From: Candidatus Cloacimonadales bacterium
GTDB taxonomy: Bacteria; Cloacimonadota; Cloacimonadia; Cloacimonadales; JAFGVF01
Direction of reading: 5' to 3'
DNA: 64,000 nt
NCBI GenBank assembly: GCA_963663475.2
Contig: CAXXJV010000001.1
Coordinates: 1,376,001 to 1,440,000, forward strand
Of this stretch, positions 19 through 30,106 are shown in pieces; positions within the stretch are counted from its first letter, which is position 1, and every line of letters starts with the position of its first letter. A model generated the notes under the pieces. It saw nothing but the letters and a program-made list of their open reading frames with translations. It was not told the origin of the DNA and ran no database searches. Made by a program: the position numbers and the translations under genes.

Positions 19-48
19 GAGCAGGCATCAAAACCTGCTCTTTTTTTT
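19..48 (+). terminator. Rho-independent terminator for a + strand gene upstream of the window
   Basis: GAGCAGG-catcaaaa-CCTGCTC hairpin followed by T8. Confidence 0.75.
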
Positions 49-136
49 GCTTAAAATTATCTAAACTGCAATTTAATTTCTCAATCTTAGAACTAAAGGC
101 GTATTCAATACGCCCCTACATTCTCAATTCTCAATT

Positions 137-631
137 CTAAATTCTCAATTCCTGAAGTGTCATTTTCACTGCCAATTCTAAGAAAGGGCTAGGTTTTCTT
201 CCGTGTTTTTTCATATTGATAGCAATAGCCCAAGCAGTTTGGGTTATTTTTTTATCTATCAAGTCTTGTTTCTTGGGTCTTTTACTTCTTTTCATGCTTT
301 GAGCTTTAGACCAGGCACTTTTTATCTCATTTTTTACTATTCCCTTCTTGCGAACCCATTCTTTAATCTTATCAACTGGGGGCATATGGGGCTTGATTCC
401 TTCATGTAGGTACTTAGGATATTTGGTAGAACCTGAGAGTTTCCCACCTTCAGCAACATATACCAGAATATAGGTTTCAGTATCAGACACCACAGTTTTA
501 GTCTGGATAGAGTTCTTTAAATGCCCTGTAACGACCATTTTCTCACTTTCTACGATGTTTATTGCCCTTGTCCTTATCTTGTCAGCAATTAAACCTAATT
601 CTTCTTTTAAATGCCTTTTTACGCTTTCCAT
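137..631 (-). CDS. Phage neck/tail-completion protein (HK97 gp10 / Mu gpG-like)
   Basis: TGHLKNSI, YPKYLHEG and PSPFL motifs; AAGGAG RBS before ATG 631 (track start 697 runs through a repeat). Confidence 0.6.
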   Translation of the reverse strand: MESVKRHLKEELGLIADKIRTRAINIVESEKMVVTGHLKNSIQTKTVVSDTETYILVYVAEGGKLSGSTKYPKYLHEGIKPHMPPVDKIKEWVRKKGIVKNEIKSAWSKAQSMKRSKRPKKQDLIDKKITQTAWAIAINMKKHGRKPSPFLELAVKMTLQELRI

Positions 632-700
632 GTGTTTCTCCTTTAATTTATCGCCCGAAGTCCCTTGCCTAGGCCTGAGGGACTCCGGTCTTCTCACTCA

Positions 701-1063
701 CTATATATCAATAAAAGGCAAAAATCCTTCTCGTTCATTTATGATGTCATAGATAATCAGATTAGCTTCTTTGAGATAAAAGTCTTGTCTTCTCATCACA
801 TCAGCATCAGAAATTAAATGTTGAGCAGATTCACCTGTCCCCACTTGTTTAAAGACTCCTTTATTGCCTGCTATATAAGATATACGAGGTATCAGGTAAT
901 ATGCAGTTAAATACTTAAGAGCCTTGGTTATAGCATTATCTCCTGTATCTTCTACACCCTTGCGGCCGATGTATTCATAAGCATCATTTATAGCATTCTC
1001 AATCACATCGTTATTTACATCTGTAATGTTCATAAATGTTTTAATCTGGTCTGCAGTAATCAT
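701..1063 (-). CDS. Putative head-tail connector
   Basis: 120 aa, MITADQIK..IENAINDA..I helical pattern; downstream of portal. Confidence 0.5.
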   Translation of the reverse strand: MITADQIKTFMNITDVNNDVIENAINDAYEYIGRKGVEDTGDNAITKALKYLTAYYLIPRISYIAGNKGVFKQVGTGESAQHLISDADVMRRQDFYLKEANLIIYDIINEREGFLPFIDI

Positions 1064-1440
1064 AAAAGCTCCTCAAAGTGTAAGGTTTCTGTAGTTAAAT
1101 TAAAGAGGGTGGCCTTGTACTCACTTCCGTTTATAACAAGGGGTGGTGATGTTTCAAGAGAGACAAATAAGTCAGCATCAAACTGCTCAATTTTACTGAG
1201 CAATTCTAAGACAATTTGAGTATGATTTACACTAGTTTCATCTGTTTTAGTTACTATGGTAAGACTTACGTCCACCTGGTATCGGTTGAGGTTTAGAGAT
1301 TCATTTTTCTTTTTAAAGACCTTTTCCAAGGAATACAGAGCCTTTCTATGGTAAGAGGCAATATCAGTATTAATATCTACTAAAGAAAGGCCTGTGCCTG
1401 CAATTAGCTCTTCTATCACATTCCATAAGGGGTAAATCAT
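1060..1440 (-). CDS. Phage protein, possible head-closure or tail terminator
   Basis: 126 aa, overlaps portal stop and next start. Confidence 0.4.
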   Translation of the reverse strand: MIYPLWNVIEELIAGTGLSLVDINTDIASYHRKALYSLEKVFKKKNESLNLNRYQVDVSLTIVTKTDETSVNHTQIVLELLSKIEQFDADLFVSLETSPPLVINGSEYKATLFNLTTETLHFEELL

Positions 1441-2495
1441 TAAGACCTCCTAAGCAAGCTGTCCACACTTGTATTTTCTTTGATATTATAGACTAGAGGG
1501 TTAATAGTGAAGTCTGGATTATTTCCAAAAATACCAGGATATTTCTTTGCCAGTCCTCCGAATTGCCCAGATAAGACTAATTGTTTTGGATGGATGGTAG
1601 TCTGGAAGAAGATCTCCATTTGCCCTTCAGTTTCTCCTGAACCTCCCATAGCAGTAGTATTAACCATAGAGAGTAAGCGGGGTGGTACTGCATGACAAGC
1701 AATGATGTTAGTAATACATTGTTGCTCCAACTGTAAGAAAGAAGCATCTTCTCTTTGCTGTAAAGCAGTCCATTTTCCTGACATTCCTTCTTTGTAAGGT
1801 ATAACTAAAAGTTTATGAGCTCTTTCTTCTCCCTGGAACTTTTGTCTGAAGAAAGATTGAACATTATATTGAGCATTGGGTGAAATAGCTCCTCCCATTA
1901 TCTCATAAACATAGTCTGGGATAGCGTTATTATCAAAAAATCTCTCATTATAAGTCTTAATCCTTTTAATAATCCTAATATCAGGGAGTATAGGAAGATA
2001 AGAAGGTGCACCATAAATTGTAGATAAAGGTGTAGCTTGTTTAAAATGAAATACTTCATCTTCTTTAAAATCAACACTTTCTCCGTTAACTGTTTGCCTG
2101 TAACCTGTTTTAATTTTTCTCATAGTTTGAGCAGGCAAGTGAAAGATTTGTCTTTTGCTTCCTACTTTAGGTAACTCCCAGTAAGCATTTCCATACATTT
2201 CATAATCCTTAATTGTTTTTAATAATAAAGTAATTGCTGAATCTGTTGGCGTTACTTCTTCCAGGATGTCCATAATTCTCTTATCAAAGCCCTTGCCCAG
2301 GATATTGATTGCTTTCTTTTCAATACACTCAGCATGATAAGGATTGATTGTATAAGCATCAGTGAGTTCATCCATTTCAAAAGGATAGTTGAACTCGTCG
2401 TCTTTTAAATCTAAAGCCTTACTTTTAGATGCTTGAGTATCATCAGATTTACTGATAATTACAAATGGTTCGTAGTTTAATTCATTACTATTCAT
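1440..2495 (-). CDS. Phage portal protein (PBSX/P2-type)
   Basis: NPYHAECIEKK, YGNAYWE, IYGAPSY, FFDNNAIP, HAVPPRLL motifs. Confidence 0.9.
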   Translation of the reverse strand: MNSNELNYEPFVIISKSDDTQASKSKALDLKDDEFNYPFEMDELTDAYTINPYHAECIEKKAINILGKGFDKRIMDILEEVTPTDSAITLLLKTIKDYEMYGNAYWELPKVGSKRQIFHLPAQTMRKIKTGYRQTVNGESVDFKEDEVFHFKQATPLSTIYGAPSYLPILPDIRIIKRIKTYNERFFDNNAIPDYVYEIMGGAISPNAQYNVQSFFRQKFQGEERAHKLLVIPYKEGMSGKWTALQQREDASFLQLEQQCITNIIACHAVPPRLLSMVNTTAMGGSGETEGQMEIFFQTTIHPKQLVLSGQFGGLAKKYPGIFGNNPDFTINPLVYNIKENTSVDSLLRRS

Positions 2496-2527
2496 ATATT
2501 TCTCCTTTTATTCCCCTACATTCCTCA

Positions 2528-3796
2528 CTAAACAACCATCACTCCATCAATCACTCTTTCAGAATGTCTTAAATCATAAAGCATAGCTAAAGACCAAAAT
2601 TTATCTCCATGATGTTCAGTGCTTTCTGCATTATAGGAGAAGATGTTAGTACGGTTAGCAGATCTCTTTATTGATAAAATATGATTAAGCAGTGAAGGAT
2701 CATTTGGTATTAATAGTTTCTTGTCTTCGAAGCCTCTTTTTAATCTTTTGGCAAGCCTTTCTTTAACAGCAGGAGCAAAGCTATATCCCTCAATTACATT
2801 AGGATAAAGGTAAGATAAATCTTCCCAGAGATTATAACCTATACCACCTCTATCTATAGCAAATCCATCTGCATCAGATTGTCTTATCAAGTTTATAAAA
2901 AACTCTTTCTGATAGGCAAAAGTCTCTCTCTTTAAGTCCTTTATATAATTAACAACCATTAACTTATCATCATTAATAAAGGCTCCTGTGATAGCAGTTT
3001 CATCTTTCTTTCTTCCAATATCAGCAGCATAAAACATTTTAGTGTCTTCAGGGGTTGGATGTTCGTTAACATAAAGACAGGGTTCTATCAGGTTGTAAGG
3101 AATATAAGAGTCTGTAGTATCTAATGGCAGGCATTCATAAGCTTGAGCAAATTCTTCAGGTGTAAAAAGACTTCTTAATTCATCAACATTAATATCAAGT
3201 CCTTCTTCTTTGGCTGTATGAATAGTGATTAAATGCTTAGAAAAAGCATCATTCTTATCCCATATTTCCCAAAACTTATCTATCCTACTCTTAGGAGTCG
3301 AGATTACTGTTACTCTTCCTTGAGCTGCTGTAATAGCAGGAATAATAGCTTTCCATACTTCCCTGTCCTGGATAATAAAAGCAAACTCATCTAAATATAC
3401 ATCACCTGCAAAACCTCTAGCAGTCATCCAATTAGTCGCCAAAGCTTTAATACTTTTACCATTGGGCATTAAGATTTCATGTTCAGTATCATTAAAAGCT
3501 TCTATTCCCATTGCTTTAAGATGACTTCTTACATGGTTCATCACAATAACAGCATTATCTTTAGAAGCTGAAACTATTAACTGGTCCTTGTTATTAATTA
3601 ATGAACCAATAATCATCTCTAGGCCTGATAGAAAAGAAAATCCTATTTGTCTCGATTTATTAGCAATCCTATACCTGGATTTATCAGCTAAGAACTTCTT
3701 TTGATATATTCTTAAGTTCTTGATACAGTATTGCTGTATAGCAGTCCTGACAAAAGCAGGTACCTTATCTGTTGACCATATTTGCCCTTTTTTCAT
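2528..3796 (-). CDS. Terminase large subunit
   Basis: KSRQIGFS Walker A, VYLDEFAF Walker B, ISTP motif, DIGRKKD and HHGDKFWSLAM nuclease motifs. Confidence 0.93.
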   Translation of the reverse strand: MKKGQIWSTDKVPAFVRTAIQQYCIKNLRIYQKKFLADKSRYRIANKSRQIGFSFLSGLEMIIGSLINNKDQLIVSASKDNAVIVMNHVRSHLKAMGIEAFNDTEHEILMPNGKSIKALATNWMTARGFAGDVYLDEFAFIIQDREVWKAIIPAITAAQGRVTVISTPKSRIDKFWEIWDKNDAFSKHLITIHTAKEEGLDINVDELRSLFTPEEFAQAYECLPLDTTDSYIPYNLIEPCLYVNEHPTPEDTKMFYAADIGRKKDETAITGAFINDDKLMVVNYIKDLKRETFAYQKEFFINLIRQSDADGFAIDRGGIGYNLWEDLSYLYPNVIEGYSFAPAVKERLAKRLKRGFEDKKLLIPNDPSLLNHILSIKRSANRTNIFSYNAESTEHHGDKFWSLAMLYDLRHSERVIDGVMVV

Positions 3797-4003
3797 TTTT
3801 CTCCTTTAATCTATCCACGAATTACACTAATTACACTAAGAAATAGCCACCGAAAACACTGAAAACACCGAATATCTTAAATTCGTAAATTATTAAATTC
3901 TTAAATCTTCTCTGTGTTCTCTGTGTCTCTGTGGTAAAATCTTCTTTCTTCAATTCCTCACTCCTAATTCCTAACTCTTAGCTTGGTCCTGTCTACAACT
4001 TTC

Positions 4004-4065
4004 GGTATAGATGTATATATCTATACCAAAACATATTGACACCCTTTAAAAAAAGAGCAATTTTA
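4004..4065 (+). promoter_or_regulatory. Palindromic operator plus -35 in the divergent head-gene promoter region
   Basis: GGTATAGAT-N6-ATCTATACC at 4004-4027, TTGACA at 4036-4041. Confidence 0.5.
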
Positions 4066-4097
4066 TCCATGTAATTAATTTTATTAAGGAGGCTTGA

Positions 4098-4733
4098 ATG
4101 CCAAAATTAAAAGAGTTAGATGTCTCTTTTGTGTCATTGGTTAAGAACCCTGCCAATAAAAAGGATATCGTATTTAAAGCAGCTGATAAATACAATATCA
4201 CTAAAATGGTTAAAGTGGTTAAAACTGATCCTAAAGGGCTTATCTATGGAACTGTCTATGAAGCTGACACTAAGGATTCACAAGGTGACTGGGCTGATAT
4301 TGATACTATTAGAAAAGCTGCTCATGAATTTCTAATGAAAGGTAAAAATCTAAATGTTGATGAAGACCATAATGAAAAACCTTCAGGTGCTGCTATTGTC
4401 GAATCTTATGTTGATGACAAAGCTTGGAAGGTAACTATTAAGGCCGACCCGGAAAGCGAAACCTTTAAAAAAGTTATGAAAGGTGATTATGAAGGACTTT
4501 CTCTCATGGGAGTTGCTAAGAAAGTTGAAGAAGAACCACCTGCTAAAGAAGATGCTTTAGCAAAATCTATGGAAGAAATTAAACAATTAAAAGAACAGGT
4601 TGCTCAATTACAGAAAAGTATGGAAAGCCTACCTGGTACAAAGCAAATCGAATTCGATAAAGACGGTAATATCATAGCTAAAAAAAGCGATGATACCGAA
4701 CTATTCTCTGAATTCAAAACCTTGGAGGTTTAA
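4098..4733 (+). CDS. Prohead protease/scaffold (XkdF-like)
   Basis: VSLVKNPANK, DSQGD, AAHEF, H, YEGLSLMG; C-terminal coiled coil; AAGGAGG RBS. Confidence 0.85.
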   Translation: MPKLKELDVSFVSLVKNPANKKDIVFKAADKYNITKMVKVVKTDPKGLIYGTVYEADTKDSQGDWADIDTIRKAAHEFLMKGKNLNVDEDHNEKPSGAAIVESYVDDKAWKVTIKADPESETFKKVMKGDYEGLSLMGVAKKVEEEPPAKEDALAKSMEEIKQLKEQVAQLQKSMESLPGTKQIEFDKDGNIIAKKSDDTELFSEFKTLEV

Positions 4734-4735
4734 GA

Positions 4736-5569
4736 ATGGCTAAACTTTTATCAAAAAAATCTGCTGACCGCTTCATTGAGATAATGGTAGAAAACTCTCC
4801 AGTTCTCAAGAAGATTTCCTTCGCAACTCTCTCTATGCCTGTTTGTGAATATCCTCTTTTGGGAATTAGCAGATATAAGACTCGCGGGATTGCCCGTAAC
4901 TCTGTCGCATCTCTCGTAAATCCTACTGATGTAACAATTTCTTTCAACTGTAAAGAAGTTGTTTTACCTTTAGTTATTCCTGATTCTTATGCTGAAGATA
5001 TGAATACTTCACAAGAAAAAATAGCTAATTATGTTGCTCGCGTTTTTGGCCTGGATATGCAATACCTTTTCTTAGCAGGTGATACTGCTAATGAAGGAAC
5101 TGCTGATAAAGACCTTCTTGCAAAAACTCTTGATGGTTTGGTTAAGCAAGTAACTGCCAGTGGAAACACTGTTGATTATCCTGCTGATGCTACACCTTTA
5201 GACAAGCTTAAGCTCTTAATCAAGGCACTTCCCGATAACGCTTTGGCTGATCCTAAACTGGAAATCTGGATGGGTTCCTCTGATTACACTGACCTCTGGG
5301 ATTCCATTGCCAATAACTCTGCTGATAAAGCACTCTTGATGAAAGATAACAAAATCTATTATAGAACTAAAGAAGTTGTCGAAATTCCTGAACTCTCTAA
5401 GATTATTGTTCTCAATCCTGAGCATGTTGCAGCTGGTATTGTTAGAGATATGACTATCGAAACTCAGCGTTATCCTGAAGCTCGTGGTAACAAAGTTGTT
5501 CTTTCTGCTCGTGTAGATATTCAACCTGTTACTGATCACATGGTTATTGAAGGTAGCCAATCAGCTTAA
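4736..5569 (+). CDS. Major capsid protein (short, 277 aa)
   Basis: Follows protease; ADRFIEIMVENSPVLK, FGLDMQYLFLAGD, DGLVKQ resemble HK97-fold P2-type capsids. Confidence 0.8.
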   Translation: MAKLLSKKSADRFIEIMVENSPVLKKISFATLSMPVCEYPLLGISRYKTRGIARNSVASLVNPTDVTISFNCKEVVLPLVIPDSYAEDMNTSQEKIANYVARVFGLDMQYLFLAGDTANEGTADKDLLAKTLDGLVKQVTASGNTVDYPADATPLDKLKLLIKALPDNALADPKLEIWMGSSDYTDLWDSIANNSADKALLMKDNKIYYRTKEVVEIPELSKIIVLNPEHVAAGIVRDMTIETQRYPEARGNKVVLSARVDIQPVTDHMVIEGSQSA

Positions 5570-5579
5570 GGAGTTGATT

Positions 5580-5777
5580 ATGCCTGTTTGTGAGCAACAC
5601 GCACGACTTGAAGAAGATATTAAATATATCAAAAATAAACTTGATGGCAATGGTCGTCCAGGTGTCCTGGAACGGCTTAGCCGTCTGGAAACGAAATTAA
5701 CAATCATAATCTGGCTTAATGGTTTTATGGCTTCTGCTGTGATTGGAAGCATTATTAAGTCTATAATTGGAGGATAA
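5580..5777 (+). CDS. Small coiled-coil plus TM protein (holin/XhlA-like)
   Basis: AAGGAG RBS; LDGNGRPGVLERLSRLE followed by C-terminal hydrophobic helix. Confidence 0.5.
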   Translation: MPVCEQHARLEEDIKYIKNKLDGNGRPGVLERLSRLETKLTIIIWLNGFMASAVIGSIIKSIIGG

Positions 5778-5778
5778 T

Positions 5779-6189
5779 GTGGGCGAATTATTTAATCATC
5801 CTGCTGTTGTATCTGCTATTAGTGTAATCTTTACACTTTTTATTATGGGGGCTTTCTGGATTATTAAAAAGCAAAAACTTAACTTTGACTTCTTACTTCC
5901 AACAGTCACCACTATTATTGAAGCTATCTTTGCTAATGCTAAGGCAACTAATCCTGCTTTAGCTGCAAGACAAGAAGTAGAGACGCGACTGTCTCAAGAG
6001 GAATTAGCTAGACTCTCTAAACGCTTAGCTACCAACGACCCCGTCCAAACTATATATAATACTATAACAAATCCGGCCAGAGAGTCCGGGGAAAAAGATG
6101 CTTCTTCCTGGATAAGACAAATTGCAAGTGGCTTAGGTGCTTCTGCTATCTCTGGACTCGCAAAAGGATTGGCAAAGAAGTTGTTTTAG
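5779..6189 (+). CDS. Membrane protein, putative holin/lysis protein
   Basis: GGAGG then GTG start; N-terminal TM; directly before lysozyme. Confidence 0.45.
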   Translation: MGELFNHPAVVSAISVIFTLFIMGAFWIIKKQKLNFDFLLPTVTTIIEAIFANAKATNPALAARQEVETRLSQEELARLSKRLATNDPVQTIYNTITNPARESGEKDASSWIRQIASGLGASAISGLAKGLAKKLF

Positions 6190-6197
6190 AGAAAATT

Positions 6198-6647
6198 ATG
6201 ATGAGACACATTAAAATTCAATGTAAAGAAATCGCTCGTAAGATGCTGATGAAACACGAAGGTCTAAGACTTAAACCTTATTCTTGCTCAGCAGGAAAAC
6301 TAACAATTGGTTTTGGGCGAAATTTGGAAGACAAGGGAATCACTGAAGTTGAAGCACATAATCTACTTGATAATGATATTGATTCTCTTGTCTCTCAACT
6401 GATTAAAACTTATCCCTGGTTTAGGGAACTCAATGATGTGAGAAAGGCTGTTGTTATTGATATGGCCTTTAACTTAGGACTAGCAGGCTTCTCTGCTTTT
6501 AAAAAGACTATTGCTTACCTTACTCAGCATGATTACTCTAATGCTTCTCGCGAAATGCTTAACAGCAAGTGGGCTATGCAAGTGGGTTATCGTGCCAATG
6601 AGCTATCTAAGCTAATGGAGAATGGAGAATTGAGAAGTGAGAAATAA
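6198..6647 (+). CDS. Endolysin, GH24 lysozyme
   Basis: HEGLRLKPY..SAGKLTIGFGRNL, MAFNLG, SKWAMQVGYRA. Confidence 0.92.
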   Translation: MMRHIKIQCKEIARKMLMKHEGLRLKPYSCSAGKLTIGFGRNLEDKGITEVEAHNLLDNDIDSLVSQLIKTYPWFRELNDVRKAVVIDMAFNLGLAGFSAFKKTIAYLTQHDYSNASREMLNSKWAMQVGYRANELSKLMENGELRSEK

Positions 6648-6694
6648 CCGGGAACGCTGACATCTTGTCGGCACACTAAATATAAGGAGAAAAT

Positions 6695-7216
6695 ATGTTA
6701 ACTAAAATAACAACTCTTACTTATGACTTGCTAACATCAGTTAATTCTGTATTTAGCAAACAATGTAGAGTTTATGTAGCAAAAGGTTCAATGGAAGAAG
6801 CTGATATACCTACAGACAAAGCATCACTTCAAGCACTCTATTCAGGTGTTGACGCTAAGTTTGTCTTTCTGGGTAACCTTTCTGAAAGTGGATCTAAAAT
6901 TGGTTGGAAGCAAAACTCAATTGCAATTGACTTTGGTTCAATAAATACCAATACTGATATTACAGGAACACTAATTTCACTTATGTGCGATAAAAATATG
7001 CTTGGTTTCATCGAAACTCAAGTAGGAGAACATTCATTTCTTTTTATACCTGATAAAGGTGATGATACTATTCTCTGTGCTCTTTCTGGAGTAACAATGT
7101 CTCATGAAGGTGAGATTCCTGTAGTAGGAAAGAATGAAACAGCCAAAATAACCTTAAATCTAACTGCAAACGTTAATAAGGTTACTGATGCTGTTAAATT
7201 TAGCAATCTAGCATAG
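6695..7216 (+). CDS. Putative tail tube protein
   Basis: 173 aa beta-rich, strong AAGGAG RBS, position after lysis genes. Confidence 0.45.
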   Translation: MLTKITTLTYDLLTSVNSVFSKQCRVYVAKGSMEEADIPTDKASLQALYSGVDAKFVFLGNLSESGSKIGWKQNSIAIDFGSINTNTDITGTLISLMCDKNMLGFIETQVGEHSFLFIPDKGDDTILCALSGVTMSHEGEIPVVGKNETAKITLNLTANVNKVTDAVKFSNLA

Positions 7217-7226
7217 AGGTGAAATA

Positions 7227-7658
7227 ATGAAAATGATAAGAATAAAGACCGGTAGTGAACTCCATGAGTTTTACGGAACTATTGATGTTACCCCTGAAAT
7301 AAAGCATATGGTAGAAGAAGAATGTGTTTATAATACTGGTCTTTCTTATCGTTTTGGTAAGTATTTTGTTGATAAGATTCAGCTTAATCTGAGTATTTCA
7401 GCTGAGGACTACGAAAATCTCTACTATAAAGTTATGAACTTGAATGAGTGGATTATTGCCTGGGAAACCTTAAACGGCTACCAATGGAGAAAATCTCGTT
7501 CTCCTCTCCCATATCCCTCTAAAATTCGCTTTATTAACGATGCTGTTACCCTAAAAATTGAGTCTGAACCTTACACTATACCAATGCAAAACATGACTAA
7601 TATTACTATGAATACTATCTGGAATGAATCTACTCCGGATAATACTATATGGAACTAG
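7227..7658 (+). CDS. Phage tail protein (possibly Dit-like)
   Basis: 143 aa in tail cluster with RBS. Confidence 0.35.
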   Translation: MKMIRIKTGSELHEFYGTIDVTPEIKHMVEEECVYNTGLSYRFGKYFVDKIQLNLSISAEDYENLYYKVMNLNEWIIAWETLNGYQWRKSRSPLPYPSKIRFINDAVTLKIESEPYTIPMQNMTNITMNTIWNESTPDNTIWN

Positions 7659-7821
7659 GAGTGAGGAGTGAATAGAACACAATGACACAGATTAAACAGA
7701 TTTACACAGATAAGAAAGATTTAATAATTTCGGTGTATTCGGTGTTTTCGGTGGCTAATATTTTCTTATCTTAAGACTCTGTGTTAAGGAAATTTAAAAG
7801 AATATAAAAAAAGGAGAAAGT

Positions 7822-8649
7822 ATGATAAATTTACCCGGTCCTGATACTACAGATTGGGGCACTCTCTATAACAGTGCTATTAATCAACTCGAAACTATGA
7901 TTAATGCCAAAACAACAGAAATTTCATCTCTACAAACTCTTGTTAGCCAACTTCAAGCAGCTTTAAGCGAAATAGAAATGGATACGCAACATATAGATCA
8001 CAATGGTACACCACTTTCTGATGTTGTCCATAATTTGGAAGGATCTTTTAACAATCCAATAACCCCAGGAACTAAAACCAAAATAACTTATGATGCTAAA
8101 GGTTTTGTGACAGGAGGTACTAACCTAACTGAAGGAGATATTCCTGCACTTTCAATATCTAAAATCATAGGGCTTGAGGATATAATTAACATGGTGTTAG
8201 TTGATATGGATAGAGTAGAAATATCTGCTTCTATTCGTAATACAAATGGTGGAATTAGAGTCTCATGTTTTACTAATCCTCCTGTACCAGTACAATCATG
8301 GTCTGTAATGTTGGAATGGAAAGGGTCAATTTTTTATGATGTCCGTTCTTCCTCAAGTGAAAGCTTTATCAATATGGGTAATTATCCAGAAATACCTGAT
8401 GGCCAATTAGTTAATATTATGGTGGCAGCAATATCTGGAACCAGTATTAAAAAAAAGAACTATTCACATACTTATAATTATGTGGCAACTTCCATAGATT
8501 TAAGAGTAAAAGCTGTAGAACATGAACTCGCACCTCAAGCTCTCATGGACAGAATAGCTCAAGATGATAATATTCTGAATGAATTAGTTAACAAGCTTCA
8601 ACACTCTGGCACATTAGTACAGCGTCTTAGTGAGGTTCTTGCCCGATGA
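7822..8649 (+). CDS. Tail fibre-like protein
   Basis: WGTLYNSAINQLE N-terminus; TKITYDAKGFVTGGT and DIPALSISKIIGL fibre motifs. Confidence 0.65.
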   Translation: MINLPGPDTTDWGTLYNSAINQLETMINAKTTEISSLQTLVSQLQAALSEIEMDTQHIDHNGTPLSDVVHNLEGSFNNPITPGTKTKITYDAKGFVTGGTNLTEGDIPALSISKIIGLEDIINMVLVDMDRVEISASIRNTNGGIRVSCFTNPPVPVQSWSVMLEWKGSIFYDVRSSSSESFINMGNYPEIPDGQLVNIMVAAISGTSIKKKNYSHTYNYVATSIDLRVKAVEHELAPQALMDRIAQDDNILNELVNKLQHSGTLVQRLSEVLAR

Positions 8650-8885
8650 CAAAGACCTTAAGAGACCTCAATGTTTATGAGTGGATGCAAGGCAAAACTG
8701 TAGCCACTAAACGCATTGATATTAGCCTTGAATATAAAGCTCCTATCTACTCCCTTGTAGATAAAAAGGAAGAAATTAACATCTTCGATAAAAATATAAT
8801 CACTGAATCTGATGACTTTCCTGCTACACCTGAACCAGGTCAAATTGTTAGAAAAAATGGAATAACATACATTTACCGCCCTTAA
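8646..8885 (+). CDS. Small tail-fibre-associated protein
   Basis: C-terminus FPATPEPGQIVRKNGITYIY similar to that of 9149..9733. Confidence 0.5.
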   Translation: MTKTLRDLNVYEWMQGKTVATKRIDISLEYKAPIYSLVDKKEEINIFDKNIITESDDFPATPEPGQIVRKNGITYIYRP

Positions 8886-8948
8886 TTCCCCTCTGCGGAG
8901 GGGTGCCTGTAAAGGCGGGGTGGTATAACAAGAAATAAGGAGAAAAAA

Positions 8949-9149
8949 TTGAATTTAACCGAATATCTCGAACAAAAAAGACAAAGCTTAATAGCTACCA
9001 ACAAGAACCTATCAGATGAAAAACTAAGAGTTGAAGGTGCCTGGTTAATCTTACAAGAGATTGAAGAGATAATAACAACCCCTAAATCCCCTAAAGGGGA
9101 CTTTGAGGAAGAGAAACCCAAAACAAAGAAAACAAAGAGAGGTAAATAA
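8949..9149 (+). CDS. Small phage coiled-coil protein
   Basis: AAGGAG RBS with TTG start; stop overlaps next ATG. Confidence 0.5.
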   Translation: MNLTEYLEQKRQSLIATNKNLSDEKLRVEGAWLILQEIEEIITTPKSPKGDFEEEKPKTKKTKRGK

Positions 9150-9733
9150 TGGCTTGGAAGAAAATAGTAGATTCATCATTTACTATTAATGGTAAGGCAC
9201 TAGAAGGTCCAATTGAATTAACAAAAGAAGATGTTGGACTTAGTAATGTAGATAACCTTTCCAGAGAACAACTAATTGCAGGACTTACAGCTGATGATAT
9301 TCCTGTAATTACTATAAGTAAAGTAACAGGTCTCCAAGGTGCATTAGATGCAAAAGTTCCTACTAGCAGAACTATTGCCGGTAAGCCCTTAACAGCTGAT
9401 ATATCTCTTGCTAAGGCTGATGTAGGACTGGCAAACGTAGAAAATAAATCACCTGAAGAACTTTCATCACTTATCAGAAGTCAAATTGTGGCTGATGATA
9501 TACCACTACTTGAAATAACAAAAATAAATGGATTAGTTGATTTACATGTGTTTCTAGCCTCTGAAATTAGCTCTAAAGTGTCTAAAACCACTACCATTAA
9601 TGGAAAGGCTTTAGATGCTAATATCTCTCTTGGCGGACAAGATATCATTAGGCCAGAGTCTTCTCTCCCTGCATCTGGTTCCCCTGGTGAAATGATTAGA
9701 TTCTCAGGTAATACCTATATATGGAAGGCTTAA
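9149..9733 (+). CDS. Tail fibre protein with repeats
   Basis: Repeats TINGKAL..DVGLxNVxN and ADDIP..ISKVTGL. Confidence 0.75.
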   Translation: MAWKKIVDSSFTINGKALEGPIELTKEDVGLSNVDNLSREQLIAGLTADDIPVITISKVTGLQGALDAKVPTSRTIAGKPLTADISLAKADVGLANVENKSPEELSSLIRSQIVADDIPLLEITKINGLVDLHVFLASEISSKVSKTTTINGKALDANISLGGQDIIRPESSLPASGSPGEMIRFSGNTYIWKA

Positions 9734-9734
9734 T

Positions 9735-10373
9735 ATGTGGGTAAAAGTAGCTGATAGAGAAGAAATTGCTAAGTTTGAGATTACGCCTCAAGCTAACAAA
9801 GTTACTAGTCTAATTGGTGAAACACCAGATAGTTTTATGGCCTCTGAAGATGATTTAGGCCTTATGCTTCTTTGCAAAGTTCCTCTTAAAATTTCCTCTT
9901 TGGATATCCAATTAGAAGATGATGCTGAAATTAACCTAGAGTGTTGGCAATATGAGGGACAGAACTCTCATTTAATCTTTTCTAAATCAGGCTTTACTGG
10001 TATTCTAGGTCTTAATACTATTCCTTGTGATATTATGCTTAGTCCTGGTAAATACTTTCTAAGAGTGATTAGTAGAGGTATCTTGCTTAAAAATACTACA
10101 AAAATCTCTACAAGTCATCACTTCCTGTCAGTTGTTGGAGGCTCAAGCGTAACAAATGACCTTATTCCTGATTATCAAGAACTTTTAAATCCTACTGTTT
10201 GGTTTGGTATTTATAATATCCAAATACAAGTAGCAAATAAATCCTTATATCTAGGTATAACTGATGATCTTCTAAATAATGATGATCTCATACTAGGAGC
10301 TTTTTATCACTGTATTAAAAGTGGCTCATTAACTATGTATGTCTTTGACGGTACTCAACAATATTCAAAATAA
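9735..10373 (+). CDS. Putative tail fibre tip / receptor-binding protein
   Basis: 212 aa, coupled to the fibre gene. Confidence 0.4.
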   Translation: MWVKVADREEIAKFEITPQANKVTSLIGETPDSFMASEDDLGLMLLCKVPLKISSLDIQLEDDAEINLECWQYEGQNSHLIFSKSGFTGILGLNTIPCDIMLSPGKYFLRVISRGILLKNTTKISTSHHFLSVVGGSSVTNDLIPDYQELLNPTVWFGIYNIQIQVANKSLYLGITDDLLNNDDLILGAFYHCIKSGSLTMYVFDGTQQYSK

Positions 10374-10416
10374 CTGGGAATGTGGGCATCCTTGCCCGCA
10401 TCTTAAAGGAGAAATA

Positions 10417-10755
10417 ATGCAATATAAAACAAATATCAAGACTCTTAAAAGAGTATATGCAATTGCTAAAGAAGTAGGATTGGAAAACATTATCATGGGT
10501 TCCAATGAAGAAAAAGAAGTGAAATTTGACCTTAAAACCATCTTAAACGGTGTTTTCGAAAAGGGTTTAATCAACGAATTCTGTCAAACTGTTACAGGAG
10601 AGACTAAAGACTTCGAAGAAGTAAGCTTAACTGAAGTGGAGAGTGTCATACTGGGTTTTTTCGATGCTATCAAAGGGGACTTGCAAGAATCAAGATTACT
10701 AAAAGCAATGATAGTAACTCAACAGAAGAATCAGATAACCCCTTCTACGACATAA
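10417..10755 (+). CDS. Tail assembly chaperone (gpG-like); -1 frameshift extends it to 10835
   Basis: AAGGAG RBS at ATG 10417; slippery G GGT TTT TTC at 10653-10662; -1 frame open to TAA 10835; precedes tape measure. Confidence 0.8.
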   Translation: MQYKTNIKTLKRVYAIAKEVGLENIIMGSNEEKEVKFDLKTILNGVFEKGLINEFCQTVTGETKDFEEVSLTEVESVILGFFDAIKGDLQESRLLKAMIVTQQKNQITPSTT

Positions 10756-10892
10756 GCTTTGTCTTATGGCAAAACAATATTAACCCGGATAACTTAGAGA
10801 TTGATGAAGCATTTCATTATTTGGAAAAGATTTAATTTACTTGTAGGGGCGTATTGCATACGCCCTTCCATTGGCGGTGTGGTTTCATTCCA

Positions 10893-11000
10893 TCACCTTA
10901 AATATTTATCTATCGGATTACTTCCATCATCTGATAAGATAAACCAAATGATAAAAGCTATAGGTACTAAAAATACTAATATCGCGATTATAAGCCACAT
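10893..11000 (-). CDS. 35-aa single-TM protein (moron-like), not in ORF track
   Basis: MWLIIAILVFLVPIAFIIWFILSDDGSNPIDKYLR*; AAAGGAG RBS at 11007-11013 on minus strand. Confidence 0.65.
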   Translation of the reverse strand: MWLIIAILVFLVPIAFIIWFILSDDGSNPIDKYLR

Positions 11001-11099
11001 GGGTAACTCCTTTCTTCTCTGTGTCCTCTGTGTCTCTGTGGTGAGTTCTTCATTCCTGACTCTTAACTCCTAACTAAATAATAACCAAGTAGGTATAAT

Positions 11100-13979
11100 A
11101 TGCAAGATTTAAAATTAATGATAAGATTTAACTTCGACGGTAAGAACGAATTAGAAAAGATTATCGATGAAGTTGCTAAGAAACATAACCTGGAAGTAAA
11201 GAGTAATCTGGGTCAAGTAAAGGTGGATGTAGATAGTATTGGTAAAGGTTTTACTAATATAACCAATAAAATAACTACTGCTGTTACTAAATTTGGTTTC
11301 TTTACTCAAGGTCTTTCTCAGGCAGGTGTAATATTAAGAATGCTGGCTGATGAAACTGTTAACTTAGGTAGAGAACAAATAAGATCTGATAAATTAGTTG
11401 AAGGTGCTGTTAAAGCTACTGGTGCGGCCGCTGGATTTACTACTGCTGAACTTAAACGCATGGCAAACCAACTTCAAGATGATACTAACTTCGGTGATGA
11501 AAAGCTTCTTGCTAAAGTTACCTCTGTTTTACTCACCTTTAAACAAGTTCAAGGTGATGTATTCCGGGAAGCTCAATCTCTTATCCTGGATATGTCAGAA
11601 GCTCTTGACCAAGACCTCCAGCAAGCATCAATCCAAGTAGGTAAAGCCTTGCAAGACCCAATTCAAGGAGTTACTGCCCTTCGCCGTGTTGGTGTTCAAC
11701 TATCTGAACAACAAGAACAGCAAATTAAAGACTTCATGGCTGTCAATAAAGTAGCTAAAGCTCAAAAAATTATCCTACAAGAACTAAATTCTCAGTTTGG
11801 AGGACAAGCTAAGAATGTCGCAGACCCTTTTATTCAGCTCAAAAACACTTTTGGAGATATTAAAGAAATTATTGGTATTGCCTTACTTCCTGGTCTTAAT
11901 GCTATTGCCTCCTCTACCAAAAATTGGCTTGAATCTCTTAAACCTGCTACTTCTGAACTAGAAAAAGTTACTGATGAATCCCAAAACCAACAAGCTGAAT
12001 TCTTTAGCTTAACCTCTGCCTATGAAACACTTCGCTTTAAACAAGGCGAAACCCTTGAATCTAGCACTGCCCTTAAAGATATTATCGATACTCTTAATTC
12101 TAAATATGGTGATTACCTAGGTAATATTGACCTGGCCACTACTAAATACCAAGACTTTAAAACTGCTGTTAGTAATGCGACTCTTGAACTACAAAAAGAG
12201 GCAATGACTAAAGCCTTTCTTGCTAAAAGACAAGATATTACTGATAAAATAACTGATGTGTCTGCTGACCTTGTTAATGATATAATGAAGAAAAGAAAAA
12301 AATTAGAGATTGCACAAAAACAACTCCAAAAAGCAATGGCAGAACAAAAAGTCGCAGAAACAAACTGGGAAGCAGACCAGGGTAATAATCCACAATTAGA
12401 AAGTGATCTAGAAGATGCAATATGGTGGACTGAACGAAAACAAAAACAATTAGAACAAGAACAAGAAGATTTTGACCAAGCTGTAGAAGATTTAAACAAT
12501 AAAGCCAAAGCTAAACTAACCGGCTTAGAATTAGAACTTAGTTTATTCGATGACTCCTCAACTTCTTTATTAAAACAACTTCTCGGTGAAGAAGAAGATG
12601 ATGATAAGGGCAAAGGTAAGGGTAAGGGAGGAAATACTGTTATTGCTAACCCAGATGAAATAGATAAACAACTACAAGCCCTTAAAGATAGCTTCAAAAC
12701 CAAACAGCAACTTCTTACTGATAACTACAATGCTCAAACAGAGCTTATCAATAAGAACGTCGCTGATGAAACAGAAAGGACTAACCTCTTAACAGCTTTA
12801 GATGAAAAATATGCTAATGATTCCAAAGCTCTTAAACACCAGGAATTTCAAGAAGAGCTTGCTATTGCTGAGAATAAGAAACAACTGGGTATTCTTACCT
12901 ACCAAGAACTTAAAACTACTGTAGATGAATACTATAACTGGGTTAAAGCTAATTATGATAAAGATTCTAAAGAATATGTCCAAGCCCTTAATATGAAACA
13001 TAATGCAGACCTTCGTTATGGCCAAGAAACTAAAAAACTTAACGATAAGCTGCTTAAAGATACTAAAGATACCTGGCAAACTGCTCTGAAAATGTTTGAC
13101 TTAGACTTAATACCTTACCAACAGCTTCAAACTGCCTACCAGAACTATAAAAACATGCTTCAATCTACTTCTGAAGATGCTGATCTAACTGAAGACCAAA
13201 TTAATAAGATTACCATAGCTGTTAAAGAACTCGATAACCAAATGGAGAAAATATCTCAAAATCAGAACTGGCTCTCTAAATGGGTTAATAACACTAACGA
13301 AGCTTTTGATGAAGTTAATGATCAGTCGTGGGGAGTTGCCGGCAATGTTGCCTCCTCCTGGGCTAATACCTTTACTAAAATACAAAAAGAAGGTATGGAC
13401 TTTAAAAAAGATATGGAAGCCATCTGGAAAGGCTTAGCATATGCTGTTATAGAAGAGATAAACAGAATGATTGCCCGTTGGCTTGTGCTTATGGCTATTA
13501 AAGGGATTGGTAAGCTTTTTGGATTGGATTCAGTCTTCGGTATAGCAGTGAATAAAGCCGAAGGTGGTTATATCTCAGGACCAGGCGGACCAAAAGACGA
13601 TGTTATCCCTGCCTGGCTATCTAACGGAGAGTTTGTAATCAATGCAGAAAAAACAGCCATTTTTAGACCTCTCTTAGAGTATCTTAACTATACTCCTATG
13701 GCTTCTCTTAAAACTAGCTTATCACTCCCTAAAGTTAATATGCCTGCTATTCCTAAAGTAGCTTACTCTTCAGGTGGATATGCTAATCACCCAGGATTTG
13801 ACCTGTCTCGAATAGAAGAAAAATTAGATAAACTTGATAAATTAGAAAAAGTAATTAATGAACTGCAAGAACTTAAGAAAAAAGACTACACTGTCCAGGT
13901 TTCTACTAAATTTAGAGGTGTAGAGTTCGCTAAAGAAGTAAATAAAGCCCAATCACAATACCAAAGGATTATGAGATGA
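11100..13979 (+). CDS. Tape measure protein
   Basis: 959 aa helical; QVGKALQDPIQGVTALRRVG; C-terminal AEGGYISGPGGPKDDVIPAWLSNGEFVI. Confidence 0.92.
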   Translation: MQDLKLMIRFNFDGKNELEKIIDEVAKKHNLEVKSNLGQVKVDVDSIGKGFTNITNKITTAVTKFGFFTQGLSQAGVILRMLADETVNLGREQIRSDKLVEGAVKATGAAAGFTTAELKRMANQLQDDTNFGDEKLLAKVTSVLLTFKQVQGDVFREAQSLILDMSEALDQDLQQASIQVGKALQDPIQGVTALRRVGVQLSEQQEQQIKDFMAVNKVAKAQKIILQELNSQFGGQAKNVADPFIQLKNTFGDIKEIIGIALLPGLNAIASSTKNWLESLKPATSELEKVTDESQNQQAEFFSLTSAYETLRFKQGETLESSTALKDIIDTLNSKYGDYLGNIDLATTKYQDFKTAVSNATLELQKEAMTKAFLAKRQDITDKITDVSADLVNDIMKKRKKLEIAQKQLQKAMAEQKVAETNWEADQGNNPQLESDLEDAIWWTERKQKQLEQEQEDFDQAVEDLNNKAKAKLTGLELELSLFDDSSTSLLKQLLGEEEDDDKGKGKGKGGNTVIANPDEIDKQLQALKDSFKTKQQLLTDNYNAQTELINKNVADETERTNLLTALDEKYANDSKALKHQEFQEELAIAENKKQLGILTYQELKTTVDEYYNWVKANYDKDSKEYVQALNMKHNADLRYGQETKKLNDKLLKDTKDTWQTALKMFDLDLIPYQQLQTAYQNYKNMLQSTSEDADLTEDQINKITIAVKELDNQMEKISQNQNWLSKWVNNTNEAFDEVNDQSWGVAGNVASSWANTFTKIQKEGMDFKKDMEAIWKGLAYAVIEEINRMIARWLVLMAIKGIGKLFGLDSVFGIAVNKAEGGYISGPGGPKDDVIPAWLSNGEFVINAEKTAIFRPLLEYLNYTPMASLKTSLSLPKVNMPAIPKVAYSSGGYANHPGFDLSRIEEKLDKLDKLEKVINELQELKKKDYTVQVSTKFRGVEFAKEVNKAQSQYQRIMR

Positions 13980-15043
13980 GAATAGATTTTATAGATAATA
14001 ATACCGTCGTTGCCTCTACTGATAAACTTATTGATATCGACCTATCTTACTACGATAATGTCCTGGTCTCTAAACCTGTTGCCCCTGAAGTAAGATTTAC
14101 CATAGCTTATAACCACCTCGATAACAACGACCCCTTTGTTACCTGGTGGAAAACTATCACTCAAGGCGAAATACCCGAAAATGTCTTTGCTGTTATCTAC
14201 GACGGAAATGGTTATGAAGTCGCTTCTGGAGACCTCTTTGAATACGATGAAGACCTACAAAACTTCGCTCTCGAAATCCTTATTGTGCCAGGGTTTACTC
14301 AAATTCTTGATGAAGAGAAGAATAAATCTGGAGAAATTGTTAAGCCTATTACTCATGATGCATCTCTTAACTATATAACTGGCTTACTCAGAGAAGTATT
14401 TCTTAATATGTGGAACAAATTGAATATTCCTTATTCTTGCATTTTAAATGATCCTACTCCAAACGGTGTCATCTGGATGGATTTTATTGATGTTGCTAAC
14501 ATTATTCACTACTTTTGCCAATCCAGGCTATTATCTGGTAACGCGTACTTCCTGCGGATTAATTATGTATTAAATGGGACAAAAGCTAATTCTATCAATA
14601 GTTTGGGCTTCAGCAATCTCCTAAAATTATTTTATTCTAGAAAATCAAACTCTTTCTCTTCATGGAATCCTCAGCAAACTAAACAAGTTCAAGGTTTTGT
14701 TACTGGTACTTCATATAATGAACTTGATACAGATGATTTCTCTCCTTTATATAGACTTCGTGTATATGATTATGGTGGTGATGATGAAATAGGTGATTTA
14801 GACTCTCTATACAAAGCTAAGATACAACAAAAAGTTAATTCCTTAAAAGTAAGAAAAAATTATCATATCCAAGGAAATGTAGCTTTTACATGGCTTTACC
14901 CGGGAGACTCAATAAGCCTTAATGGACAAACTTATATCATCAAAGAAATTAATTACGATCCTGTATCATTAAATACTATATCTCACATGGGTTCAAATTT
15001 AAACCTAAAATTCTTCAATGCTGTATGTGTCAAAGGTAGTTAA
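13976..15043 (+). CDS. Putative tail tip/hub protein
   Basis: Follows tape measure; C-terminal LYPGDSISLNGQTYIIKEI. Confidence 0.5.
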   Translation: MRIDFIDNNTVVASTDKLIDIDLSYYDNVLVSKPVAPEVRFTIAYNHLDNNDPFVTWWKTITQGEIPENVFAVIYDGNGYEVASGDLFEYDEDLQNFALEILIVPGFTQILDEEKNKSGEIVKPITHDASLNYITGLLREVFLNMWNKLNIPYSCILNDPTPNGVIWMDFIDVANIIHYFCQSRLLSGNAYFLRINYVLNGTKANSINSLGFSNLLKLFYSRKSNSFSSWNPQQTKQVQGFVTGTSYNELDTDDFSPLYRLRVYDYGGDDEIGDLDSLYKAKIQQKVNSLKVRKNYHIQGNVAFTWLYPGDSISLNGQTYIIKEINYDPVSLNTISHMGSNLNLKFFNAVCVKGS

Positions 15044-15196
15044 ACTGCAAAATAATTTCTAAATCTTAGAACTAAACTGCAAAATAATTTCTCATTAAGT
15101 GATTTACCACTGCAAAATAATTTCTAAATCTTAGAACTAAACTGCAAAATAATTTCTCATTCACTGCAATTTAATTTCAAAGTGCATAATTAAACA
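15041..15196. repeat. Array of ACTGCAAwwTAATTTC repeats, putative transposase-binding end
   Basis: Copies at 15044, 15076, 15109, 15141, 15163 plus a degenerate one at 15181 ending ACA; another at 65. Confidence 0.8.
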
Positions 15197-15381
15197 GTGC
15201 ATGATAATAATATACATGATTTAACAATAATATAAATAAAACGATTTATTATATAATAATTTTAATTTAAATGCTTGCAACTTATTTGTTTAAAAATATT
15301 TTATTCCATTTCAATAATTATCTTCTTGACAGCTAAAAGATATTTTACTTAAATTACATTATAAAGATTAAGGAGTTTGAA

Positions 15382-16110: not shown

Positions 16111-16121
16111 AAAATAATACT

Positions 16122-25069: not shown

Positions 25070-26606
<1,537 letters not shown>

Positions 26607-26709
26607 TAAAGGAGAAATAGTTTCTTGATAAGTTTACTTTTTCATTCTATAACAAAACATAAAATTTTACAGTAAATAGAGTGCAATAGAGTGTGTATAA
26701 TTAATTTTT

Positions 26710-29826
<3,117 letters not shown>

Positions 29827-29986
29827 TATTTTTTATATACACTCTATTATCTCTTACTGTTTAACAACAGTAAGAGAAATGAAGAATTAATAATGAAAAA
29901 TGAAAAATGAAAGAATATGAATCATTTTAAAATTAATTATTCAGGCACGACAAACTAAGTAAAATAAACATTTTTGACAGGGGTCA

Positions 29987-30106
<120 letters not shown>

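Follow-up and report, generated by a model that had tools for sequence, protein, structure and literature searches.

Which kind of mobile element, if any, do the phage genes at the left edge of this stretch belong to? The stretch, here called the window, comprises 64,000 nucleotides of the genome of Candidatus Cloacimonadales bacterium (assembly GCA_963663475.2, contig CAXXJV010000001.1). Window coordinates correspond to C1:1376001-1440000 of contig C1 of this genome, and negative positions lie to the left of the window. A preliminary description of the first 15 kb offered two readings, either the late half of a transposable phage or a domesticated particle resembling a gene transfer agent (GTA), and it named an ordinary prophage with an integrase as a third outcome. 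We suggest that the region is very probably the late half, encoding virion and lysis proteins, of a complete temperate phage, which uses Mu-type DDE transposition for insertion and presumably also for replication.

Megablast of the surroundings and alignment of the ends showed that the 15-kb block is the right, late half of an element with its exact ends at window positions -13083 and 15188; the preliminary description had drawn the right limit slightly too far, at 15196. This copy, copy A, is 28,272 bp long (C1:1362917-1391188), including a 1.45-kb insertion sequence (IS). A megablast with the flanks showed that the genome contains the element three times. Copy B lacks the IS and is 26,881 bp long (C2:304099-330979), and copy C, with its halves at the starts of contigs C1 and C2, was reconstructed to 26,782 bp. 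The two contig starts (C1:1-10632 and C2:1-10658) overlap by 10,658 nt inside copy C with 0 mismatches and one 26-nt gap.

The terminal inverted repeats are perfect over approximately 50 bp, and the ends are identical in all three copies. Each copy starts with TATGCACTTTGAAATTAAATTGCAGT and its other end is the exact reverse complement; the termini read TA...TA outside TGCAC...GTGCA. A 16-bp repeat is present four times at the left end and five times at the right end. In the window, the right end occupies 15044-15188 (+ strand): the five copies of the repeat, ACTGCAAWWTAATTTC, fill 15044-15178, the last approximately 50 bp are the inverted copy of the left end, and the terminus reads ...GTGCATA. 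The terminal sequence predicted in the preliminary description turned out to be host flank. The insertion sites of the three copies are unrelated to each other, and each has its own 5-bp target duplication, namely ATTAA for copy A (15189-15193, with the second copy directly left of the left end, outside the window), AAAAC for copy B and TAATG for copy C. By our own estimate, the chance of a 5-bp match at this base composition is approximately 0.002 per copy. The two TAATG copies of copy C are on different contigs and therefore tie C1 and C2 together; contig C2 (403 kb) probably connects to C1 and does not form a replicon of its own.

The left arm, read in copy B as the copy without the IS insertion, is a rightward early/middle operon extending from -13083 to approximately 0. 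In brief, it starts with an HTH_3/CI-type repressor of 163 amino acids (aa), which is read leftward and has a match to the helix-turn-helix (HTH) families HTH_19/HTH_3, and, divergent from it, a 93-aa HTH protein at the position of Ner/Cro (Ner-like HTH match). These are followed by a transposase of 681 aa (phrog_310, expect value (E) 3.6e-37), a run of small genes with no function assigned, a DUF3164 protein (E 7.5e-49), a Phg_2220_C protein, a Mu F-like head protein and a 181-aa protein. The latter has a signal peptide and a C-terminal aromatic residue and, from reading of its sequence, resembles an outer membrane barrel, and thus an outer membrane protein-like moron; it has no family match. 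The transposase, the repressor and the inverted ends are located 11-13 kb to the left of the window, where the preliminary description had expected the DDE transposase and repressor of a transposable phage.

A 1,453-bp IS3-family element (HTH_Tnp_1 and rve) interrupts the transposase gene of copy A behind codon 318; the genome has at least eight further copies of this IS. Copies B and C encode full-length transposases of 681 and approximately 678-680 aa, respectively. The transposase clade is very rare: among 1.84 billion proteins, 64 representatives were related to the transposase at E <= 0.001, eight of them below 1e-30, and scoring of 8,000 candidates out of 5.8 billion gave 10 clusters at E <= 1e-5. 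When 27 relatives were combined in a profile, it matched TnsB (1.5e-78) and the MuA structure 4fcy (4.6e-43), and the relatives themselves carry Mu-transpos_C (17 of 27) and rve (16 of 27). An AlphaFold2 (AF2) model of the protein has a mean predicted local distance difference test score (pLDDT) of 76.5, above 85 in the core, and its fold matches the structures of TnsB, MuA, Tn7 TnsB and IstA. By profile and model, the 681-aa protein is a predicted MuA/TnsB-type DDE transposase. The alignment places D292 at the first and E398 at the third catalytic position.

A 90-aa open reading frame (ORF) at L010:9531-9803 in copy B, left of the window in copy A, is 55% identical to residues 359-398 of the transposase. 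It keeps the LECD motif without the catalytic E, and it may be a truncated transposase paralogue acting as a regulator.

If the element were an ordinary integrase-type prophage cut by the window edge, its temperate look and its CI-type repressor would be expected. However, no ORF scanned across the 26.9 kb matched an integrase family, neither in the left arm nor in the span described before, for which the preliminary description had already noted the lack of an integrase. Furthermore, there is no transfer RNA gene anywhere in the 64-kb window, the ends are inverted repeats and not direct att repeats, and three unrelated sites each carry their own 5-bp duplication. We consider this explanation extremely improbable.

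The GTA-like reading holds that a structural gene cluster is kept by the host and packages random host DNA. The window part alone would fit this, having no integrase, repressor or replication gene and, as was also noted earlier, no small terminase recognised by family scans of the span. The cluster, however, is contiguous with a full arm of regulatory and transposition genes, has lysis genes of its own, and in each of the three copies it is bounded by inverted ends and a target duplication of its own. The preliminary description proposed conservation of the module and its insertion point in related genomes as a check, and the site was found to be empty in the sister genomes G004 and G006. There, homologues of C1:1355233-1358091 and of C1:1391314 onward are approximately 100 nt apart, and the extra 33.2 kb in the present genome consists of the prophage and a 4.8-kb gene. 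The right flank is conserved in all six same-genus genomes from approximately 126 nt beyond the end, and the 2-kb left flank of copy A was found in none of the six. A search of 40 other genomes gave one near-full-length relative of the transposase (residues 105-681 of 681, 87% identity), in G005, and only short N-terminal matches in nine further genomes. Together with empty sites in metagenome contigs, described below, these observations leave the GTA-like reading with hardly any probability.

In two wastewater metagenome runs, from two studies, a contig of 15.6-15.8 kb covers window positions 15191-17000 with 29 differences and continues leftward as a homologue of the left flank of copy A. 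The site is thus precisely empty there, and the pentamer that is duplicated around copy A is present once, with one base different. Another contig in the same runs joins the right end of the phage to a different flank. The insertion site is polymorphic in nature. Contigs of the phage body have depths of 431-455 in these runs vs 49-85 for the host flank, a ratio of 5-9, but contig depth is not copy number and we do not take depth ratios as proof of induction.

For the transposable phage that these observations point to, we suggest that the transposase would bind the 16-bp repeats, pair the ends and join them to target DNA cut 5 bp apart. The virions would be long-tailed and non-contractile and would be filled by a headful terminase. 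Since the IS3-family element splits its transposase gene, copy A would be unable to make its own transposase, and it could still move in trans.

Several results weigh against a Mu-type transposable phage. As a single sequence, the transposase did not reach the Pfam thresholds for rve or Mu transposase and had no PDB sequence match; it also had no match among 50,697 phage records and none in viral contigs. In the alignment, the second catalytic position is occupied by E363 in a YLECDK motif, where relatives have DNGK, with D365, the other candidate, two residues on. All eight members of the close clade have E363, D365 and E398. With an E and not a D as the second catalytic residue it is not certain that the transposase is active. 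We did not find a TnpB-type ATPase: no open frame of more than 30 aa in copies A and B contains a Walker A motif, and the only Walker A match in copy C is inside the repressor HTH. AAA families gave no match in the element even at E up to 1, so the AAA helper expected to the left of the window by the preliminary description is not recognisable there. Nor was there any match in the element to Phage-MuB_C (PF09077), though its control matched nowhere either. Mor (PF08765) had 0 matches in the whole genome, and the four genome matches to GemA (PF06252) are all outside the element, in other prophages. According to passages in PMC8705779, TnpA and TnpB are the signature proteins of transposable phages, Mor/C and GemA serve as search markers, and 36-39 kb is a conserved length. 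The element falls outside the TnpA plus TnpB and 36-39 kb criteria of these passages. Against a genome size of approximately 36-40 kb, the copies measure 26,881 bp (B), 26,782 bp (C) and 28,272 bp (A). In the isolate run, depths of 188-203, 94 and 591-696 (terminal repeat) fit three copies with no excess. Finally, the copies are mosaic and not identical, and may result from three separate acquisitions and not from recent transposition in this cell.

The missing ATPase raises the possibility that the phage is not self-sufficient and uses the ATPase of a resident canonical Mu-like prophage, or a host factor, for efficient target capture. The same genome served as positive control here: three other MuA-type transposases are each directly followed by an ORF of 237-262 aa that contains a Walker A motif, and each has a match to GemA in its vicinity; the element has neither. 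These transposases are, however, only distantly related to that of the element, which in its own genome matched only its three copies and small paralogous ORFs. Moreover, the relatives L025, L027 and L026, from other samples, encode a transposase, two small conserved genes and DUF3164 with no ATPase in between. As these relatives also do without it, the absence of the ATPase looks like a lineage trait, and we find dependence on a resident prophage or host factor unlikely.

The three further canonical Mu-like prophages are located at C1:158000-172000, C1:1920000-1934000 and C1:2679000-2693000 and have transposases of 675-919 aa. In total there are six transposable prophages in this 3.3-Mb genome.

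A further explanation is that the three copies are decaying relics, kept similar by gene conversion, none of which still forms phage. The split transposase gene of copy A, the host-type repeats in intergenic gaps and the isolate-run depth that does not exceed three copies would agree with this. On the other hand, the late ORFs are all open in all three copies, and the transposase genes of B and C are still full-length. The insertion site varies in natural populations, and in wastewater the phage end is joined to another flank and the phage-body contigs reach 5-9 times the depth of the host flank, with the reservation on copy number given above. Decay of all three copies seems to us improbable, somewhat more so than dependence on another ATPase, and we retain a complete transposable phage as our interpretation.

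The three copies are 100% identical over most of their length and differ in blocks. In the immunity region all three differ from each other (62-87% identity), and copy B also differs in some early genes. From the fibre to the chaperone region, A and C are the same and B is 93-97% identical to them, whereas in the tape measure gene A and B are the same and C is 86-98.6% identical. The repressors of the three copies are 39-51% identical in the first 85 residues and 95-100% in the rest, and the operator regions differ as well. Because both the DNA-binding domains of the repressors and the operators differ between copies, these represent three putative immunity types and the copies are probably heteroimmune. 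From this pattern we infer that the copies were either acquired separately or exchanged sequence with other variants, and were homogenised afterwards.

The preliminary description was based in part on a 36-bp motif at 62-97 that matches 15041-15076 and was thought to bracket the module. The match is real, with 3 mismatches, and none of 100 shuffles gave two matches, but it does not bracket anything, as the left end is 13 kb upstream. The partner at 15041-15076 is the first of the five right-end 16-bp repeats. The motif at 62-97 (+ strand) is a single copy of the 33-bp end-repeat unit, with the 16-bp core ACTGCAATTTAATTTC, in the same orientation as the right-end repeats. In the whole genome the end-repeat motif is found only at the prophage copies, at their ends and in this one internal place. 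Since every other genomic match falls at a prophage end, we regard 62-97 as an internal copy of the end repeat and not as an end. It sits near the middle of the element, between two terminator hairpins, in the gap where the rightward and leftward operons converge. The internal site is also kept in the wastewater variants, where there are loose ends at 15041/15076.

The relative G041 has three copies of its own repeat, CAGTCTCATTTAATTTCAAA, at its right end and one further exact copy in a variable loop of the terminase gene. Both phages thus keep one internal end-like site near mid-genome, in non-homologous places; no such site was found at the corresponding place in the relative L013. One idea is that the internal site might have a role in pairing the ends, by analogy with Mu, for which passages in PMC5977238 describe a central gyrase site with a role in end pairing.

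A second possible component of end pairing is located within the transposase gene. In the AF2 model, residues 1-50 of the transposase form an N-terminal winged HTH (pLDDT approximately 90), followed by a disordered linker at 56-109 (pLDDT 31-39). In the DNA that codes for the linker, a motif of 7-12 nt is repeated 4-13 times; this array starts from approximately nt 155 of the gene and lies approximately 1.0 kb from the left end of the element. The motif is GAGTGCCAA in copy A, CAGATGGACA in copy B, where the array consists of 4.5 perfect 33-nt units, and CAGAGTG[AC]CA in copy C. We compared 14 MuA-type transposase genes, taken from the three copies, five relatives, the three other prophages of the genome, and G003, G004, G012 and G033. 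In 11 of the 14, a 7-mer is repeated 4-13 times within nt 141-520. The remaining genes are L012, with two motif copies and a frameshift in the array, L018, an xKT gene with no array, and X2, which has neither an MWLT-type N-terminus nor an array. In six of the 11 arrays with at least four copies, the most frequent 7-mer falls into more than one reading frame (two or three), and selection therefore seems to act on the DNA, which is hard to reconcile with selection on the peptide.

The array motif co-varies with the residue at the start of the putative recognition helix. In brief, xRT goes with GTGCC/GTGCA in 6/6 genes (A, C, L012, L023, X1 and X3), xKT with TGGACA in all four xKT genes that have arrays (B, L016, L017 and L019) and xST with CAGATG.TCA in L013; close kin among these genes (A/L023, L016/L017 and X1/X3) make the independent cases fewer than those counted. 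The pairing holds across unrelated MuA-type transposases of the host lineage. We also considered the arrays as repressor operators and dropped this, as the array motif is not present in the repressor/Ner operator region. In the G005 relative (L012:3369-3600 / L015) the transposase frame shifts inside the two-copy array, and slippage in the array can therefore switch the transposase gene off.

The enhancer of Mu is located approximately 1.0 kb from the left end and is bound by the N-terminal domain of MuA. We tentatively propose, as something possible but not what we would bet on, that the arrays could be an enhancer bound by the transposase's own N-terminal domain. Together with the internal end repeat, they would then form a self-contained system, acting in cis and in trans, for end pairing, perhaps replacing the helper ATPase. 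The rival reading is that the arrays are slippage-prone linkers with no role at the DNA level. The enhancer-binding domain so far appears specific to Mu in the passages of PMC8705779 that treat it, and we found no description of enhancer arrays inside transposase genes in the open-access literature. If the arrays are enhancers, they would be the first outside Mu and an easy system for the study of the evolution of site specificity.

The late half in the window is organized as two divergent operons. The rightward early/middle operon is closed by a hairpin with a T-run at 20-50 (+ strand, read from the sequence), and a hairpin formed by an inverted repeat at 97-117 (- strand) is the likely terminator of the leftward head operon. 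The latter encodes, on the - strand, a neck/tail-completion-like protein of 164 aa at 137-631 (phrog_5, E 2.3e-6; start assigned from a ribosome-binding site (RBS) and ATG), a virion structural, connector-like protein of 120 aa at 701-1063 (phrog_302, E 1.2e-4), a 126-aa protein at 1060-1440 that has no family match and is conserved in the relative L027, the portal protein at 1440-2495 (PF04860, E 6e-24; phrog_12, E 7e-30) and the large terminase, TerL, at 2528-3796 (Terminase_6N, E 4.5e-19; Terminase_6C; phrog_2). The closest phage matches of TerL are only approximately 30% identical. A divergent control region of approximately 300 bp (3797-4097), with short repeats common to other genomic sites and to 11013-11055, separates the two late operons.

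The rightward late operon (+ strand) starts with a head maturation protease of the XkdF type at 4098-4733 (PF14550, E 2.4e-20; phrog_3017, E 8e-31) and a major capsid protein candidate at 4736-5569 (phrog_1623, E 5e-32). The candidate has six weak phage matches, two of which are annotated as capsid. The divergence of terminase and portal (1440-3796) from protease and capsid (4098-5569), seen in the preliminary description, is thus borne out by family matches. The operon continues with two small, overlapping membrane proteins of approximately 65 and 140 aa (5580-5777 and 5767-6189), with one hydrophobic segment each, and an endolysin of the lysozyme type at 6198-6647 (PF00959, E 5e-14; phrog_7, E 6e-23). 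From their position beside the lysozyme gene, the membrane proteins are candidate holin or lysis accessory proteins, and with this lysis cassette (5580-6189 and 6198-6647) the module is not structure-only, as it had been called. Two proteins of 173 and 143 aa (6695-7658), without family matches, are candidates for the tail tube or tail terminator.

Further downstream on the + strand are fibre-like proteins of 275 aa (7822-8649) and 194 aa (9149-9733), with a 79-aa ORF between them and a common repeat of the DIPxLxISKIxGL type; in this region, 7822-9733, copies A and B are 94-95% identical. The next protein, of 212 aa (9735-10373), had been put forward as the tube candidate. Its model is of low confidence (pLDDT 51.6), its weak matches are to fibre and collagen-repeat proteins and resemble fibre tips, not tubes, and in G041 its homologue is encoded at the right end, behind the fibres and a long way from the tape measure gene; it is more likely of the fibre-tip or receptor-binding type than a tube. 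No tail tube gene was recognised by searches of Pfam, PHROGs, NCBIfam, PDB sequences and a protein atlas, and PDB sequence searches gave nothing usable for the 173-, 143- and 355-aa proteins.

A frameshifting tail assembly chaperone is plausible at 10417-10838 from position and frameshift signal, in agreement with the earlier description. The candidate has 112 aa in frame 0 (10417-10755, + strand) and a -1 extension to 10838: an in-frame G_GGT_TTT heptamer is found at 10653-10659, and the -1 frame has no stop until 10838, shortly ahead of a hairpin. The heptamer and the open -1 frame are both kept in copy B despite approximately 5% divergence. The candidate has no family match in Pfam, PHROGs or NCBIfam. 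The tape measure protein of 959 aa is encoded at 11100-13979 (+ strand; phrog_27166, E 8e-48; TMP_2), so that tape measure and fibres are present as first described. The last gene (13976-15043, + strand) encodes a 355-aa tail-tip protein candidate with a weak PF18994 match (E 0.005). In the wastewater variants the middle of this gene, 14297-14854, is replaced by 544 unrelated letters, as would be expected for a host-range determinant.

Scans of the late genes against Pfam, PHROGs and NCBIfam gave no match to sheath or baseplate families, in line with the lack of such a set in the preliminary description. The only late ORFs of more than 300 aa are those of the portal, TerL, the tape measure and the 355-aa last gene. 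As nothing like a sheath or baseplate protein was found, we predict a long non-contractile tail. Family scans of the window block gave no match to P2-type capsid/scaffold or tube families either.

Between the chaperone candidate and the tape measure gene, reading of the sequence revealed an antisense ORF (10887-11000, - strand) with a good RBS that encodes a 37-aa hydrophobic peptide. A 43-nt sequence upstream of this ORF is repeated upstream of the terminase gene (3906-3948). The repeat may be a shared late promoter or activator site, or the ORF may be a small toxin-like moron. A dispersed repeat of the host, resembling repetitive extragenic palindromic (REP) elements, is present between two phage genes at 651-691 and has matches elsewhere in the genome. 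For segment 631-690, 38 matches were counted elsewhere than in the prophage copies; at this place copy A has 38 nt and copy B 153 nt. REP-like hairpin repeats are found host-wide and also in the prophage gaps 10351-10410, 3781-3960, 7711-7770 and 10981-11070, of which 10351-10410 has 23 matches outside the prophage copies.

The transposases of L025/L028 (from G041, a 21.9-kb record) and L027 are 46-48% identical to that of the element. In both, the transposase, small genes, DUF3164 and Mu F are encoded rightward, followed by neck, portal and TerL leftward. As this order is kept, the P2-like divergence of terminase and portal from the rest is old in the lineage. In G041, the protease-capsid-lysozyme-tape-measure block is inverted, with the fibres and the 212-aa homologue at the right end, and since this block has the opposite orientation, the layout of the head genes is not fixed in the lineage.

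The 4.8-kb gene directly left of the prophage (C1:1358119-1362801; L009:119-4801) encodes a 1,560-aa superfamily 1 helicase (AAA_11/AAA_12), which also has an MTES_1575 restriction-endonuclease-like domain and a GreA/B-like C-terminus. It is strain-specific, being missing from all six same-genus genomes, but present in wastewater contigs, and looks like a defence gene. At C1:1346620-1355560, 20-30 kb left of the window, a block of 300-800 nt occurs 4-5 times at intervals of 2.4-3.1 kb; its copies are 92-99% identical, and some of this is also present in G006 and G004. On the other side of the prophage, a ribosomal RNA operon (16S, 23S, 5S) is found at 25070-30105; its 16S-23S spacer is only approximately 100 nt long.

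The element is a new, compact form of transposable phages. We found no description of a Cloacimonadota transposable phage in the open-access literature, including that on Cloacimonadota prophages and transposable siphoviruses; passages of a Cloacimonadota preprint mention prophages only as the label of a category. In practice, transposable phages are defined by TnpA, the TnpB ATPase, Mor/GemA and a length of 36-40 kb, and marker-based searches would miss this lineage. It appears that a Mu-type lifestyle is possible on 27 kb without a recognisable target-capture ATPase. To our knowledge, the Cloacimonadales have hardly been studied and no genetic tools exist for the group; mutagenesis tools could naturally be developed from a small transposable phage that is active.

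Compared with known systems, the best structural and profile matches of the transposase are to TnsB of Tn7-like transposons and of type V-K transposons associated with clustered regularly interspaced short palindromic repeats (CRISPR). Unlike these, the element has no TnsC-like ATPase, TniQ or CRISPR effector, and it carries virion genes. The head layout resembles that of P2, in which terminase and portal (Q-P) are read leftward and protease/scaffold and capsid (O-N) rightward from one control region, and the weaker matches of the terminase include P2-like phages, for example Pasteurella F108. The divergent head layout alone is shared, whereas the contractile tail genes and the P2-type capsid family of P2 are not matched in the element.

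The best TerL matches, with 28-32% identity over 88-91% of the protein, are to Rhodovulum vB_RhkS_P1, Thiobacimonas vB_ThpS-P1, Pelagibaca vB_PeaS-P1 and Pasteurella AFS-2018a. These four phages differ from the element in having no similarity to its transposase and no match to its capsid. PMC5488378 uses the term 'Mu-like' for the two roseophages. The Leptospira transposable prophages described in passages of PMC8705779 share with the element the TA at both ends, the presence of several prophages per genome and copies on two replicons or contigs; they differ in their length of 35-40 kb, their sheath proteins, TnpB and 6-bp duplications. The same passages describe Leptospira TnpA as having no enhancer-binding domain.

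Pseudomonas phages B3 and D3112, the siphoviral 'saltoviruses', share with the element the type of tail, long and non-contractile as predicted here, a CI-type repressor and a lifestyle driven by a transposase. B3 and D3112 also carry a DUF3164-type early gene. They differ in their length of 37-40 kb and in encoding TnpB, for which the element has no match, and B3 makes a 6-bp duplication according to a passage in PMC8705779.

Compared with Mu, at approximately 37 kb, the element is smaller (26.9 kb), and the sheath and baseplate, a MuB-type ATPase, Mor/C, GemA and Gam were not found in it. Its portal is of the HK97 type (PF04860), its protease and capsid belong to other families, its repressor is of the CI type and not of the Mu c type, its ends read TA...TA outside TGCAC...GTGCA, and its second catalytic residue is E/D-shifted. 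What the element has in common with Mu is a predicted DDE transposase of the MuA fold, several inverted repeats at the ends that are predicted to be bound by the transposase, and a 5-bp target duplication. It also shares the order of the left end, where the transposase gene comes after those of the repressor and the Ner-like protein, and a Mu F-like head protein.

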